From NCBI RefSeq assembly GCF_044324875.1, contig NZ_CP172185.1: a stretch of DNA of 64,000 nt. One strand, given 5' to 3'. Below, one piece after another: positions 3,391 through 63,203 of this stretch. The stretch comes from Escherichia coli (GTDB lineage Bacteria > Pseudomonadota > Gammaproteobacteria > Enterobacterales > Enterobacteriaceae). A program made the position numbers and the translations under genes. Within the stretch, counting starts at the first letter, position 1, and each line of letters starts with the position of its first letter. The notes below the pieces were generated by a model. That model was not told the DNA's origin. It was given only the letters and a program-made list of their open reading frames with translations, and did not search any database.

Positions 3391-3627
3391 ATGTTTAAAA
3401 AATCTGTTTTATTTGCAACACTATTATCTGGCGTTATGGCATTTTCCACCAATGCAGATGATAAAATAATTCTGAAACATATCAGCGTCTCGTCAGTATC
3501 AGCATCACCGACAGTTCTTGAGGATGCCATTGCTGATATAGCCAGAAAATATAATGCTTCATCCTGGAAAGTCACATCGATGCGAATTGATAATAATTCA
3601 ACCGCAACAGCAGTATTGTATAAATAA
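3391..3627 (+). CDS. rclB: Small periplasmic DUF1471-type protein RclB (78 aa, signal peptide)
   Basis: ORF 3376..3627, start trimmed to MFKKSVLFATLLSGVMAFS; follows rclA. Confidence 0.8.
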   Translation: MFKKSVLFATLLSGVMAFSTNADDKIILKHISVSSVSASPTVLEDAIADIARKYNASSWKVTSMRIDNNSTATAVLYK

Positions 3628-3638
3628 GGATGTTCACA

Positions 3639-4232
3639 ATGGAAAAATACCTGCACCTGTTAAGTCGGGGAGATAAAATTGGCCTGACATTGATTCGTCT
3701 GAGTATTGCGATTGTTTTTATGTGGATTGGGTTATTAAAGTTTGTCCCTTACGAGGCAGACAGCATTACACCATTCGTCGCAAACAGTCCACTAATGTCG
3801 TTCTTTTATGAACACCCGGAAGACTATAAACAGTATCTGACTCACGAAGGCGAATACAAACCAGAAGCAAGGGCATGGCAAACGGCCAATAATACCTATG
3901 GTTTTTCCAACGGTCTTGGCGTCGTGGAGGTGATTATTGCTCTGCTGGTTTTGGCTAATCCTGTCAATCGCTGGTTAGGTTTATTGGGAGGGCTGATGGC
4001 ATTTACCACACCGTTGGTAACACTCTCATTTTTAATCACCACCCCGGAGGCATGGGTACCCGCATTGGGTGACGCTCATCATGGTTTCCCTTATTTATCC
4101 GGTGCTGGTCGCCTGGTATTGAAAGATACTCTGATGCTGGCAGGTGCTGTCATGATAATGGCAGATTCGGCGCGGGAAATTCTTAAACAACGCAGTAATG
4201 AATCCAGTTCAACGTTAAAAACTGAATATTGA
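3639..4232 (+). CDS. rclC: Inner-membrane protein RclC (197 aa)
   Basis: ORF 3630..4232, start trimmed to MEKYLHLL; hydrophobic segments. Confidence 0.8.
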   Translation: MEKYLHLLSRGDKIGLTLIRLSIAIVFMWIGLLKFVPYEADSITPFVANSPLMSFFYEHPEDYKQYLTHEGEYKPEARAWQTANNTYGFSNGLGVVEVIIALLVLANPVNRWLGLLGGLMAFTTPLVTLSFLITTPEAWVPALGDAHHGFPYLSGAGRLVLKDTLMLAGAVMIMADSAREILKQRSNESSSTLKTEY

Positions 4233-53672: not shown

Positions 53673-53684
53673 AATATAAATTCA

Positions 53685-54080
53685 AAAACGCATGCGAAAC
53701 GCTTCTGCCATTTTCCCAATTTTATGCATTTGGTTGTTATCTCGAGCCAGTTTATGAGGTTCAGGTTTCAGAATGGCAATGAGCAACCATGCTTGCTCAT
53801 CAAACGCACCCTGACAATATACCAAATGCGCTTCGTCATTCGTTCTGCTGAATTGGCGCAACTGTGGCGGAAATGGATTATTCTAATTTGCCAGATGAAT
53901 ATGAGCAACTCGCTCAAATTTGATTAATGGCCAGGTAAACGAGTCGTCGTAGAGTGCATCGCGACCAAATATATCTGGCAAAACACCGTCACGCTTATAG
54001 GAAATAAAATCCGCCGTTAACGCTTCAAGTTCCTCTGCTGTAAGTTGCAGGCGAATGAGTTTTGTTTTGAATACCCGCAT
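53685..54080 (-). pseudogene. yafO: YafO toxin gene with in-frame amber codon at codon 66 (65 + 66 sense codons either side of TAG)
   Basis: MRVFKTKLIRLQ...IHLAN then TAG at 53883..53885, then same-frame NNPFPPQL...AEAFRMRF*; total 132 codons. Confidence 0.7.
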
Positions 54081-54082
54081 CC

Positions 54083-54376
54083 TTATTCCTTAAAGTCATT
54101 GAAATCATCATCCGTCATATCATTAAGATATTTTTCAGCTCGGCGTGTAATTTCCTCTAATCTTGCAGCACTTGGACGGAAGCGCGCCTTTATAGGCTTT
54201 TTCTCCTCTTGTTCAGTAAGCATGTCCATTAACGCTTCGAATGCGCTGGCACTTAAGAGATATCCTGCGGGGCGATTATTAGAAAGAACCGCAACTGGTT
54301 GATCAATAAAGTATTTAGCTGGGTTTTTACGTAACTCAGTGATATTGACCGATTTTTCCGCAAGAATTCGATGCAT
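54083..54376 (-). CDS. yafN: Antitoxin YafN
   Basis: 97-aa Phd/YefM-type ORF directly upstream of yafO. Confidence 0.85.
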   Translation of the reverse strand: MHRILAEKSVNITELRKNPAKYFIDQPVAVLSNNRPAGYLLSASAFEALMDMLTEQEEKKPIKARFRPSAARLEEITRRAEKYLNDMTDDDFNDFKE

Positions 54377-55553: not shown

Positions 55554-56300
55554 TTAACGCGTTCGCTGCGAAAGCACCTGCTGCTTATCCAGCTTTTGCA
55601 CCAGCGGTTGCACCACTTTATCCCCATGCTGACCAAAGTATTGATACAGCGTATCGGACGCACTTTTGGTCAGCACCATAATCTCAATGCGCCGGTTGCC
55701 CGCGCTTTGCGGATTTTTGGCATCCAGCAGCATCTGGTCCGCCATTGCACTTACCTGCATCACTTTATCTTCCGGCATTCCGGCCTCTTCCAGCACCCGA
55801 CGAGCTGAAAGCGCGCGATCGCCCGAAAGGTTCCAGTTGTTGTAGATATTGTTTTTGTAGGCCATCGCATCGGTATGCCCGGTGATGATGATCTTATTGT
55901 CGAGCGAATCAAAAACCGGTGCTAACTCCACCAGCAAAGTTTTAAAGAACGGCATAATCTGCGCGCTGCCGCGTTCAAACATATTGCGGTTCTGGTCATC
56001 TTTAATCAGCACGCGCAGTCCCTGGGGAACAATCTCCATCTCCAGATTCGCTTCCATATGCGCATCACGGGCAATGGTGTTGATACTGGTTGCCAGCTCG
56101 CCAAGCTCAGTAGCGGATTTCTTCTTCAGCAGCGCCGTTTTCTCGTTGACGTCATGCGCTTTTTTCTCCGTCTCTTCCGGCACCGCCACGGTGGCAGGTT
56201 TTGGCGGATGAGACGGTCTGATTTTATTTAACGGCGACAGCCCGCCACCGTTAAAAATCGACTGCCCGTGCAGCGCGGCGATAATGCTTTCACGCTCGGA
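55554..56300 (-). pseudogene. lafU: 3' remnant of a lateral-flagellar MotB-like gene (OmpA-like domain only; junction approximate)
   Basis: ...NWNLSGDRALSARRVLEEAGMP... peptidoglycan-binding domain; no N-terminal transmembrane segment; upstream part of ORF is antisense to the fhiA remnant. Confidence 0.65.
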
Positions 56301-56309
56301 TTTACTGAC

Positions 56310-58023
56310 GCTGTTGACAATCAACTTTATCGTCGTCACCAAAGGGGCCGAGCGTATTTCCGAGGTTTCTGCCCGCTTTACCTTAGACGCGATGCCTGGC
56401 AAACAGATGGCGATTGACGCCGATCTTAACGCCGGGTTGATCAACCAGGCGCAGGCGCAAACCCGGCGCAAAGATGTTGCCAGCGAGGCCGATTTCTACG
56501 GCGCGATGGACGGGGCATCGAAGTTTGTGCGCGGGGATGCCATCGCCGGGATGATGATTCTGGCGATCAACCTGATCGGCGGCGTCTGTATCGGGATCTT
56601 CAAATACAACCTGAGCGCCGACGCCGCCTTCCAGCAGTATGTACTGATGACCATCGGCGACGGGCTGGTGGCGCAGATCCCTTCTCTGCTGCTCTCCACC
56701 GCAGCGGCGATTATCGTCACCCGCGTCAGCGACAACGGCGATATCGCCCATGATGTGCGCCACCAGCTGCTGGCAAGCCCGTCGGTGCTCTACACCGCCA
56801 CCGGGATCATGTTTGTGCTGGCGGTTGTGCCGGGGATGCCGCATCTGCCGTTTTTGCTGTTCAGCGCCCTGCTTGGTTTTACCGGCTGGCGGATGAGCAA
56901 ACGCCCGCAGGCGGCGGAGGCGGAAGAGAAAAGCCTCGAAACACTGACCCGAACCATCACCGAAACCAGCGAGCAACAGGTCAGTTGGGAAACTATTCCG
57001 CTGATCGAGCCCATCAGCTTAAGCCTCGGCTACAAGCTGGTGGCGCTGGTGGACAAAGCACAGGGTAACCCGCTCACCCAGCGGATTCGCGGCGTGCGGC
57101 AGGTGATTTCTGACGGCAACGGCGTGCTGCTGCCGGAGATCCGCATTCGGGAAAACTTCCGCCTCAAGCCCAGCCAGTACGCCATTTTCATCAATGGCAT
57201 TAAGGCTGATGAAGCGGATATTCCGGCGGATAAACTGATGGCCCTGCCCTCCAGCGAAACCTACGGCGAGATTGACGGCGTGCTGGGGAACGACCCGGCG
57301 TACGGGATGCCGGTGACCTGGATCCAGCCCGCGCAGAAAGCGAAGGCGCTGAATATGGGGTATCAGGTGATCGACAGCGCCAGCGTGATTGCCACCCATG
57401 TGAACAAGATTGTCCGCAGCTATATTCCTGATTTGTTTAACTATGATGACATCACGCAGTTGCATAACCGTTTGTCGTCGATGGCACCGCGCCTGGCGGA
57501 AGATTTGAGCGCGGCGCTCAATTACAGCCAATTGCTGAAAGTGTACCGGGCGCTGCTGACCGAAGGCGTTTCCCTGCGCGATATTGTCACCATCGCCACC
57601 GTGCTGGTCGCCAGTAGCACAGTGACCAAAGATCATATCCTGCTGGCGGCCGATGTGCGCCTGGCATTGCGGCGCAGCATTACCCATCCGTTCGTTCGCA
57701 AGCAGGAGCTGACGGTGTATACGCTGAATAATGAGCTGGAAAATCTGCTCACCAACGTGGTGAATCAGGCGCAACAGGGCGGGAAAGTGATGCTCGACAG
57801 CGTGCCGGTTGACCCGAATATGCTCAACCAGTTCCAGAGTACGATGCCGCAGGTGAAGGAGCAGATGAAAGCAGCGGGGAAAGCCCCTGTGCTGCTGGTG
57901 CCGCCGCAGCTGCGTCCTTTGCTGGCGCGTTATGCAAGGTTGTTTGCGCCGGGTCTGCATGTGCTGTCGTATAACGAAGTGCCGGATGAGCTGGAGTTGA
58001 AGATTATGGGGGCGTTGAGTTGA
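56310..58023 (+). pseudogene. fhiA: 5'-truncated FlhA-family flagellar export gate gene (about 130 N-terminal codons missing; junction approximate)
   Basis: FlhA motifs from ...VTKGAERISEVSARFTLDAMPGKQMAIDADL to C-terminus; ORF begins without transmembrane segments 1-3. Confidence 0.65.
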
Positions 58024-58029
58024 TGGCCT

Positions 58030-58360
58030 TTGGGGCGAATCCGGCATCGGTGCACAATTGCCGGATGCGGCGTGAACGCCTTATCCGGCCTACCGATCCG
58101 GCACAAGTTTGTAGGCATGATAAGACGCGTCAGCGTCGCATCAGGCATCTGCGCACAATTGCCGGATGCGGTGTGAACGCCTTATCCAGCCCACCGATCC
58201 GGCACAGGTTTGTAGGCATGATAAGACGCGCCAGCGTCGCATCAGGCACCGGTGCACAATTGCCGGATGCGGTGTGAACGCCTTATCCGGCCCACCGATC
58301 CGGCACAAGTTTGTAGGCATGATAAGACGCGCCTGCGTCGCATCAGGCATCCGCGCACAA
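58030..58360. repeat. Tandem REP/BIME array, about 3.3 copies of a 92-101 bp unit
   Basis: Repeated gcacaattgccggatgcgg(c/t)gtgaacgccttatccggcc...tgtaggcatgataagacgcg...cgtcgcatcaggca. Confidence 0.85.
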
Positions 58361-58858
58361 TTATAAAATAATACGCTCCCCGGCACTAAAATCCGTTATG
58401 TCTCCCGCCCAATCAATGGGATATAACCCTCGCGCTACATCGCGATGGAACGTTGAGAATGGCCAATCACTCACCTGCTTTACCCAGCCATGTTTCACTG
58501 GATTTATATAAATATAATCAACATGATGGCGATAATCTTTTGTATTGCGAATGGCATGCTCCCAAAAACGCGGTTGCCAGATATTTTTCAATCCGCAAGC
58601 ATGGGTGAACTGCTTTTTAATCTCCCGCCAGCGAGAGGAAAAATCATCATCGCTTTCGGGTAATGTCCAGATACAGTGCATATGCTCTGGCAAAACTACC
58701 CAGGCGTTAATTTCAAAAGGTCTGGCCTGCTTAACTTTAATAATGGCGTTACGGAGTGTCTGGTACTGGGTGGTCAAAAGTTGGCTTCGACGATTCCGTA
58801 AATTTACCGTGAAAAACCATGTTCCCCCCTTGATGTAATAACGACGATATTCAGACAT
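58361..58858 (-). CDS. rayT: REP-associated tyrosine transposase (RAYT)
   Basis: HuH motif (HMHCI) and catalytic Tyr region; flanked on both sides by REP sequences. Confidence 0.75.
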   Translation of the reverse strand: MSEYRRYYIKGGTWFFTVNLRNRRSQLLTTQYQTLRNAIIKVKQARPFEINAWVVLPEHMHCIWTLPESDDDFSSRWREIKKQFTHACGLKNIWQPRFWEHAIRNTKDYRHHVDYIYINPVKHGWVKQVSDWPFSTFHRDVARGLYPIDWAGDITDFSAGERIIL

Positions 58859-58952
58859 GGCGACTCCTTTTTCTCAACGATAAGAAGAAAAGGAAAAGTC
58901 GACAATGAAGTTGTGTTATATCGGGAAAGCAGCTCGCAAAAAATTCGCAGAC

Positions 58953-59034
58953 TCGTAGGCATGATAAGACGCGGCAGCGTCGCATCAGGCATCGGTGCAC
59001 TATTGCCGGATGCGGCGTGAACGCCTTATCCGTC
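58953..59034. repeat. REP/BIME element
   Basis: tgtaggcatgataagacgcggcagcgtcgcatcaggcat...gccggatgcggcgtgaacgccttatccg. Confidence 0.8.
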
Positions 59035-59784
59035 CTACAAAATCGTCTCTTCCGTCAAAATCCTGCGCGCGCCTAAAAAATGATCCTGCCAGAAAGGTTC
59101 AGCTAACCGACTTACCCGAATGGTTTCCCCGGTGCGCGGCGACTCGATAAACTGACCGTCTCCCAGATACACGCCCATATGATCGGCAATCTCACGGCTG
59201 TGAATATGGAAAAACAGCAAATCTCCCCGGCGCAGGTCGTTATTCGCCACAATCGTTGCCCGATGGTAGTGATACATCTCATTGGCCGTGCGCGGGAGCT
59301 TCGCCTCGAGGATCTTGTTGTAGGCATAAAAAACCAACCCGCTACAGTCGAAGCCTTGATCGGGCCGCGTGCCGCCCCAGACGTAAGGCTTACCAAGCTG
59401 CTGCTCCAGGCGGTGAATCGCCACTTCGGTGATGTTGTGCAGATGGTCGCTGCTTAAGAAATGGTTGTTCTCCGCCAGCGCCTGCCAGCGTCTGTCACTC
59501 GCCTTGAGCGGCGCAGGAAACCATTCTGGATGCTGTTTTATCTGTTCGCGGTTGTGCTGGCGCAGCGCCTTTCTGCTTTCGGCATTGCCTTCCACAATAT
59601 AGCTGGCCTGTTTTTTCAGATGGGTTTGGTACTGTTTTAATAAACGCGCACGGTTTTGCATCCGCTGGCGGGCGGCGTAGCTGAAAGAGATATGTGATGT
59701 GGTGGCGCTGGCGAGTAAAGGGAGCAAAACGCATAACGAAAACACGCCTGGATGCAGAAATCTGCCGTGAAAGAACGAAGACAT
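59035..59784 (-). CDS. yafL: NlpC/P60-family putative lipoprotein peptidase (249 aa)
   Basis: NlpC/P60 motifs (WGGT...GFDCSGLV, HMGVYLGDGQFIES). Confidence 0.8.
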   Translation of the reverse strand: MSSFFHGRFLHPGVFSLCVLLPLLASATTSHISFSYAARQRMQNRARLLKQYQTHLKKQASYIVEGNAESRKALRQHNREQIKQHPEWFPAPLKASDRRWQALAENNHFLSSDHLHNITEVAIHRLEQQLGKPYVWGGTRPDQGFDCSGLVFYAYNKILEAKLPRTANEMYHYHRATIVANNDLRRGDLLFFHIHSREIADHMGVYLGDGQFIESPRTGETIRVSRLAEPFWQDHFLGARRILTEETIL

Positions 59785-60084
59785 GAAGGACATAAACCGG
59801 CTGAATGAAGGGGAGAATTTTAAAAGACCGGAGGAGTAAGCGGGATTATTAATTGCTTATTTGCATATTACTATTGAGGTTTCATAATCTTAGGAAATAA
59901 ATGATACATGCGCTTTTCGGACTAATGAAAACTGCCCCTGTGCTAAATTTGTAAACCCTGCGCCGACAGGCTTGCGTAAAACTCTTTTGGTGATAATGTG
60001 AGCCTTCCAAATCCAGACTATTCCGATTTGGGATCCATTTTGCCGTCCTGGCGTGTGTAACCGTTTTATCAAGGAATAAGCAGT

Positions 60085-60825
60085 ATGCGTAAAATCGCAT
60101 TAATTCTTGCGATGTTGTTGATCCCGTGCGTTTCGTTTGCCGGTTTGCTGGGCAGCAGTAGCTCGACCACGCCAGTGAGCAAAGAGTATAAGCAGCAGTT
60201 GATGGGATCCCCTGTCTACATCCAGATCTTCAAGGAAGAACGTACGCTCGATCTCTACGTCAAAATGGGCGAGCAATATCAACTGCTCGACAGCTATAAA
60301 ATCTGTAAATATTCCGGCGGCTTAGGACCAAAACAGCGTCAGGGCGATTTCAAAAGCCCGGAAGGGTTTTATAGCGTCCAGCGTAATCAGTTAAAACCAG
60401 ACAGCCGTTACTACAAAGCGATTAATATTGGATTCCCCAATGCCTATGACCGTGCGCATGGTTATGAAGGGAAATACCTGATGATCCACGGCGATTGTGT
60501 TTCCATCGGCTGCTACGCGATGACCAATCAGGGTATTGATGAGATCTTCCAGTTCGTTACTGGTGCGCTGGTGTTTGGTCAGCCGAGCGTGCAAGTGAGT
60601 ATTTACCCGTTCCGTATGACCGACGCTAATATGAAGCGCCATAAGTATTCCAACTTTAAGGACTTCTGGGAGCAACTGAAACCGGGCTACGACTACTTTG
60701 AGCAAACCCGTAAGCCACCGACCGTTTCTGTGGTCAATGGCCGTTACGTGGTCAGCAAGCCGTTAAGCCACGAAGTTGTGCAACCACAGCTGGCATCAAA
60801 CTACACGCTCCCCGAGGCAAAATAA
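60085..60825 (+). CDS. yafK: YkuD-fold L,D-transpeptidase-like protein
   Basis: Signal peptide; [13 protein letters not shown] catalytic Cys motif. Confidence 0.85.
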
Positions 60826-61599: not shown

Positions 61600-61745
61600 G
61601 GCGAAGATTGATTTAAGTATTTTCAGGTCGGATGCGGCGTAAACGCATTATTCGGCCTACGGTTCGGGTACAGATTTGTAGGCATGATAAGACGCGTCAG
61701 CGTCGCATCAGGCATCAGCGCACAAATGCCGGATGCGGCGTAAAC
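61600..61745. repeat. REP/BIME cluster; its last palindromic unit carries the IS insertion
   Basis: ggtcggatgcggcgtaaacgc..., tgtaggcatgataagacgcg..., gccggatgcggcgtaaac. Confidence 0.8.
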
Positions 61746-62500
<755 letters not shown>

Positions 62501-62604
62501 ATCAGCATACTTGTCCTTAGCCTTCTGCAGTGACAGCTGGTAGTACAGCGTGCTTCTGGCCAGCCCTGCAGCCTTTAACAGGTCAGACTGGCAGTGTCCG
62601 CACC

Positions 62605-63135
62605 TCAGGCTCCGGATGACTTTCGTTTTTTCTCCAGCTCCTGGCGCTTTTTTTCCAGGAGATGCTCCTGCATGGCTTTCAGATATGCATTTTCTGCGCG
62701 AAGATAACGCAGCTCATTCTTCATCTCTTCCGGCGTCATGTTTGCCTCGTTTTCATGGGTATCATCAGAACGGGTCATGCTTTTCTCCTTCCAGCGCCTG
62801 ATAAAGGCCTCATTACCAGATTTGCGGTAGCCTTTTATCCAGTTTTTAACCGTGTTGTGGCTGGGAATGTTAAACCGGGCAGCTACCCGGGGTAGAGACT
62901 CAGAATGCCCGAGAGCATAAAGAACCACGCAAAGTTTATCTTCAGGAGAATAGCTACGCTTGTGTCTGCAATCCAGTGCCCGAGGACCGTGAAGAAGAAA
63001 AAGATTAATCCAGTGTGAGAGGCTGGTGTGAGAAAGTTGAAAGAGTTTTGCCGTAGAAATGATGCCTGCATGACCGGCCAGGTAGTGATTTACAGCGGCA
63101 AGTTTTACTTCAAATGAATGTTTCATAAACTGCAC
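62605..63135 (-). CDS. IS3-family transposase OrfA (HTH)
   Basis: 176-aa ORF ending at the GGAAAAAAAG frameshift window. Confidence 0.7.
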   Translation of the reverse strand: MQFMKHSFEVKLAAVNHYLAGHAGIISTAKLFQLSHTSLSHWINLFLLHGPRALDCRHKRSYSPEDKLCVVLYALGHSESLPRVAARFNIPSHNTVKNWIKGYRKSGNEAFIRRWKEKSMTRSDDTHENEANMTPEEMKNELRYLRAENAYLKAMQEHLLEKKRQELEKKRKSSGA

Positions 63136-63203
63136 CTTCAGATGTCAGATTATGTCCAACATTTGGGGTGCAGTTCAAACGCCTTATCCGGCCTACGCCA
63201 GAC

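Follow-up and report, generated by a model that had tools for sequence, protein, structure and literature searches.

The 300-bp interval between yafL and dpaA (yafK) in this E. coli chromosome appears to be the ancestral form of the intergenic region, never occupied by the dinJ-yafQ toxin-antitoxin cassette, which would have been inserted in another lineage and spread by recombination; we put the probability of this reading at about 0.9. The absence of dinJ-yafQ from the gap is confirmed, and it is an ordinary, already documented presence/absence polymorphism. The analysis concerns a stretch of 64,000 nucleotides, here called the window, and DinJ and YafQ were sought in the source strain within these 64 kb.

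Layout of the locus

Gene order around the gap matches that of K-12 but runs in reverse orientation. The window reads yafP, yafO, yafN, dinB, a lafU/lfhA remnant, a REP cluster, rayT, yafL, dpaA, yafJ, an insertion element and gmhA. The features at and beside the gap are as follows.

59035..59784, minus strand: yafL, an NlpC/P60 (C40) peptidase of 249 aa, from the open reading frame list (Pfam NLPC_P60, E = 3e-33)
59721..59944, no strand assigned: cassette-free Escherichia block, 224 bp, made up of the yafL upstream region and the yafL signal-peptide codons
59785..60084, no strand assigned: yafL-dpaA intergenic region, 300 bp, the unoccupied form of the K-12 yafQ-dinJ site
59945..60084, plus strand: dpaA upstream block, 140 bp, the presumed dpaA promoter and 5' leader
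60085..60825, plus strand: dpaA (yafK), a peptidoglycan meso-diaminopimelic acid protein amidase of 246 aa, annotated as in K-12 and M7424

The start of yafL at 59784 on the minus strand agrees with the 750-nt RefSeq yafL of M7424, the nearest complete genome, and together with the dpaA start at 60085 on the plus strand it makes the gap exactly 300 bp. The best match among complete genomes reached 99.4% identity over 88% of 12 kb, none being identical to the source strain, and phylogroup D strain 042 is among the closest matches to the 701-bp junction. The DpaA protein is 100% identical to that of K-12. Identity to K-12 is 97.6-97.8% for dpaA, yafJ and gmhA and approximately 93% for rayT and the part of yafL from nucleotide 65 onward (58361-59720; 93.4% for yafL from nucleotide 65 to its end), so that yafL and rayT form a local patch of divergence adjoining the cassette site.

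Several other features of the neighborhood were recorded. REP/BIME arrays lie on both sides of rayT, a REP-associated tyrosine transposase gene (58018-58378 and 58958-59035), and match Rfam naRNA4 (RF02564) at 72-76 bits, as expected for rayT. Positions 55554-58023 hold what remains of the Flag-2 lateral flagellar cluster (lfhA/lafU), and the deletion scar there is identical to that of K-12; SMS-3-5 (L084) has kept the complete Flag-2 cluster at this place. Between yafJ and gmhA, within a REP/BIME cluster, there is an IS3-family element (approximately 61630-63200) with minus-strand open reading frames at 62605-63135 and 61778-62500. Its identification as IS150 was dropped because the matching copies bear the RefSeq annotation IS1397-like. 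The IS1397-like element occupies the same site in two complete genomes (NRZ14408 and LT599825) and is missing from the four closest genomes. IS1397 targets REP palindromes.

Absence of dinJ-yafQ from the window

The K-12 record has the order dpaA(yafK)-yafQ-dinJ-yafL, which bears out the initial annotation's statement that dinJ-yafQ lies between yafK and yafL in that strain. Its observation that the 300-bp interval holds no open reading frame resembling either protein also held up, both in tblastn searches over the 64-kb window and in Pfam searches of the open reading frames in the gap. With the K-12 proteins as queries against the whole 64-kb window, DinJ and YafQ returned only chance matches (best E = 4.9 and 0.3, the latter outside the gap), and positions 59785-60084 yielded zero matches to either protein. 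The two mechanically called open reading frames that overlap the gap, of 72 and 60 aa, had a best Pfam E value of 0.15, to an unrelated family; as positive controls, K-12 DinJ and K-12 YafQ were recognized in the same search at E = 1.3e-34 (PF04221) and E = 1.6e-31 (PF15738). The window contains no open reading frame for a RelB/DinJ-family antitoxin (PF04221), nor one for a YafQ toxin of RelE-like fold (PF15738) directly downstream of an antitoxin. A blastn comparison at word size 11 of window positions 59721-59944 with K-12 245946-246775 found no similarity that would mark a remnant of cassette DNA.

Anatomy of the difference from K-12

When the interval was aligned with its K-12 counterpart, the comparison that the initial annotation had proposed, homology broke off toward dpaA at 59944/59945 and, within yafL, at 59720/59721. 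Between these breakpoints, placed by blastn and by alignment, 224 bp of the window (59721..59944) replace 830 bp of K-12 (record 245946-246775). The K-12 block is made up of 15 bp, yafQ, dinJ, a 209-bp dinJ-yafL spacer and the first 64 nt of yafL, and the window block of a 160-bp spacer and the first 64 nt of yafL (59721-59784), which are signal-peptide codons and belong to the allele-specific sequence. The site is thus the same chromosomal site that holds dinJ-yafQ (b0226-b0225) in K-12, between yafL and dpaA, with flanks shared to 59945 on the dpaA side and to 59720 on the yafL side, but in the window it is without coding sequence for DinJ (PF04221) or YafQ (PF15738).

A multi-genus alignment revealed that the yafL-proximal parts of the two blocks are one region, highly divergent, comprising an AT-rich upstream motif and the signal-peptide codons. 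The two alleles align in register and at equal length, and Cys18 and an Ala-Ser-Ala site are kept, yet only 68 of 174 positions (39%) are identical between K-12 and the window. Because these parts are the same region, the toxin-antitoxin insert proper amounts to approximately 620 bp. In the yafL-proximal part K-12 is 50-58% and the window 47-49% identical to Citrobacter. With the two types at roughly the same distance from that genus, the upstream and signal-peptide region of yafL cannot polarize the change; for the same reason we dropped the idea that the window-type YafL N-terminus is Citrobacter-like and hence ancestral. The two in-register yafL 5' alleles (window 59610-59944 against L001 4565-4776) both resemble Citrobacter more than they resemble one another, and their split is fully linked to cassette absence and presence. 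A search of 80 loci for the origin of the K-12-type yafL 5' region gave, beyond Escherichia sp. MOD1-EC7003, only one match, of 48 bp at 81% identity, between the sequence upstream of yafL in Citrobacter amalonaticus S646 and the K-12 dinJ-yafL spacer; it is the sole match outside Escherichia. In C. amalonaticus S646 (L020, approximately 3620-4000) most of the conserved dpaA upstream block is missing from the 140 bp before dpaA, and something different lies between yafL and dpaA.

It is conceivable, if on balance doubtful, that the yafL-dpaA locus exists as two ancient, hyper-divergent haplotypes fully linked to the presence and absence of the cassette, and that the 830-bp block (an insert of approximately 620 bp plus a yafL 5' allele of approximately 210 bp) moves in one piece between yafL backgrounds that differ, such as those of K-12, SMS-3-5 and Escherichia sp. 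MOD1-EC7003. Were this so, a gain of dinJ-yafQ would also swap the promoter and export signal of yafL, the neighboring peptidoglycan hydrolase gene, and the pair would come to lie immediately upstream of the control region of dpaA. Far from being a neutral passenger, the cassette would in that case alter the wiring of two cell-wall genes. The linkage of the cassette to a hyper-divergent yafL upstream and signal-peptide allele is only a mildly new detail, and it concerns the K-12-type haplotype, not the window.

Distribution among related genomes and within E. coli

Only one of 80 genomes with a dpaA homologue carries dinJ-yafQ, namely Escherichia sp. MOD1-EC7003. In E. albertii, Escherichia sp. 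E1V33, strain SCPM-O-B-8794 (labelled E. coli, yet with flanking genes only 93-95% identical to those of K-12), ten Citrobacter genomes and Phytobacter massiliensis, yafL adjoins dpaA and the toxin-antitoxin pair is absent. The pair is missing from every Citrobacter and Phytobacter genome in which the two genes are adjacent, and in most other genera the neighbor of dpaA on that side is dinB or something unrelated. The window gap aligns end to end with the intervals of E. albertii, Escherichia sp. E1V33 and SCPM-O-B-8794, to which the window-type block (59721..59944) is 78-83% identical.

Within E. coli the two arrangements are both common. The window-type block was found in 2,084 of 5,426 complete genomes and the dinJ-yafQ cassette in 3,340, which corresponds to approximately 38% without the cassette and 62% with it. 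The two counts add up to 5,424, the number of genomes that have the flanks of the locus, and are consistent with two mutually exclusive alleles as well as with no second copy of the cassette elsewhere at a DNA identity of at least 85%. Identity of the empty block to the window lies at 90-95% in 1,231 genomes and at 80-90% in 30 (1,261 genomes at 80-95%), whereas all but 3 of 3,347 cassette records match K-12 at 95% identity or more. By these figures, which are identities to one query each and not a full estimate of diversity, the empty allele far exceeds the cassette allele in diversity and would be at least as old.

Comparisons of two genomes indicate that the cassette moves independently of its background. 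Between Escherichia sp. MOD1-EC7003 and K-12, identity is 99.3% for yafQ and 98.1% for dinJ, against 95-96% for the flanking genes and 89% for yafL, and in SMS-3-5 (phylogroup F) the cassette sits on flanks that are nearer to the window than to K-12. RelB/RelE pairs on plasmids of approximately 40 kb match the yafQ-dinJ-promoter part, that is, the insert of approximately 620 bp, at 68% nucleotide identity. The genome of IAI39 is rearranged at this locus, and SMS-3-5 was taken in its place.

A published reconstruction places yafQ-dinJ in every E/B1/A genome and, as regards the F/G/B2 lineage, in F only, and lists it among acquisitions relative to phylogroup D, with gain in E/B1/A and F (PMC6896753). 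YafQ has likewise been described as prevalent in A, B1 and F (PMC10790755), and chromosomal toxin-antitoxin pairs as cassettes that were acquired horizontally and whose sites of insertion are conserved (PMC7167474, PMC5120126). For example, yafNO within dinB-yafP and mazEF within relA-mazG (PMC7167474) are also small, lineage-linked cassettes between core genes, with the junction undisturbed elsewhere. Unlike those sites, the dinJ-yafQ cassette is tied to a strongly divergent yafL upstream and signal-peptide allele, a feature of which we found no description in the literature examined.

Gain elsewhere or loss here

The outgroups, the population counts, allele depth, mobility and the literature favor the conclusion that the cassette was never acquired over the conclusion that it was lost, and this is the simplest reading. 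The direction of change, a gain elsewhere and not a loss here, is one that we infer from parsimony and allele depth. The accessory cassette dinJ-yafQ would have been inserted between the control regions of yafL and dpaA in another lineage, and recombination would then have carried it to approximately 62% of E. coli, K-12 included. The lineage of the source strain, whose closest relatives include phylogroup D strain 042, would have kept the original arrangement, in which the interval would contain only two divergently oriented control regions, that of yafL on the minus strand and that of dpaA on the plus strand. A counterpoint is that one non-coli Escherichia lineage carries the cassette, which is therefore not confined to E. 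coli.

The initial annotation described dinJ-yafQ as apparently lost or disabled. Under such a secondary loss, an ancestor of the strain had dinJ-yafQ, and the pair either was deleted or gave way to a cassette-free allele through recombination. Modules of this kind do undergo decay in E. coli, as illustrated by the amber codon of yafO in this same window and the frameshift of yafQ in SMS-3-5, and recombination clearly shuffles the locus, so that an empty allele could, mechanistically, have replaced an occupied one. Nonetheless, we consider loss very unlikely. The gap contains no remnant or scar, and it is full-length and collinear with the intervals of E. albertii and of the two other cassette-free Escherichia lineages. 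Of the two alleles the empty one has the greater depth and diversity, all Citrobacter and Phytobacter genomes with the same gene order are empty, and the published reconstruction (PMC6896753) calls the cassette a gain. In SMS-3-5 (L084 12903-13180) dinJ is intact and yafQ is annotated as frameshifted, a real decay of the module. The locus and its neighbors are the same there as in the window, but SMS-3-5 has a truly inactivated dinJ-yafQ and no trace of dinJ or yafQ exists in the window.

Contents of the 300-bp gap

The gap is made up of two parts. Positions 59785-59944 are 160 bp of Escherichia-specific sequence upstream of yafL. Positions 59945-60084 are 100% identical among the window, K-12 and SMS-3-5, and conservation of this dpaA upstream block extends from approximately 59948 across 81 enterobacterial genomes. 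The conserved boxes in it include TGTAAAC, CTTGCGAAAAA, GGTGCTAATGTGAGCG, GCCGTCCTGGC and TTTATCAAGGAA. The boundary of the K-12 cassette falls exactly at the upstream edge of the 140-bp block. On the strength of conservation alone, 59945-60084 is presumed to be the dpaA promoter and leader.

That the gap instead encodes an unrecognized small gene or small RNA, or the degenerate remains of a toxin-antitoxin pair, is extremely improbable: the 140 bp adjoining dpaA are indeed very strongly conserved and two mechanically called open reading frames run through the gap on the minus strand (72 aa, 59882-60100; 60 aa, 59890-60072), but neither has a significant Pfam match, both run antisense to the conserved leader of dpaA and across its start codon, conservation reaches no further than that codon, as would be expected of a promoter and leader, an Rfam scan of the gap gave no match at E <= 1, and RNAalifold applied to the dpaA leader of 81 genomes found only four nearly invariant pairs with essentially no covariation.

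The yafN-yafO module

The window also carries a second toxin-antitoxin module, with the following features.

53682..54080, minus strand: yafO toxin pseudogene, with TAG at codon 66 of 132 (window 53883-53885)
54083..54376, minus strand: yafN antitoxin gene, intact, with an open frame and 97.9% identity to K-12 YafN over 97 aa

Translation and a codon check found TAG in the window at yafO codon 66, where K-12 has GAG. An intact open reading frame for the YafN antitoxin is thus present and an intact one for the 132-aa YafO toxin is not. The same stop occurs in yafO of M7424, where the gene is annotated as an "internal stop" pseudogene. In the initial annotation both toxin modules appeared lost or disabled. 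This is correct for yafO, but dinJ-yafQ was probably never acquired rather than lost. Only yafO represents a true inactivation, and its stop codon and the empty dinJ-yafQ site are independent events, not a common trend.

Implications

The absence of dinJ-yafQ carries little biological weight, since the pair is already known as an accessory module whose distribution is lineage-specific, and the window represents the cassette-free state. To group the empty dinJ-yafQ site with the genuine nonsense mutation in yafO as a trend of toxin loss would mislead. K-12 is not an ancestral reference, and a gene that is missing relative to K-12 has therefore not necessarily been lost; the "missing" genes at this locus probably reflect a gain on the K-12 side.
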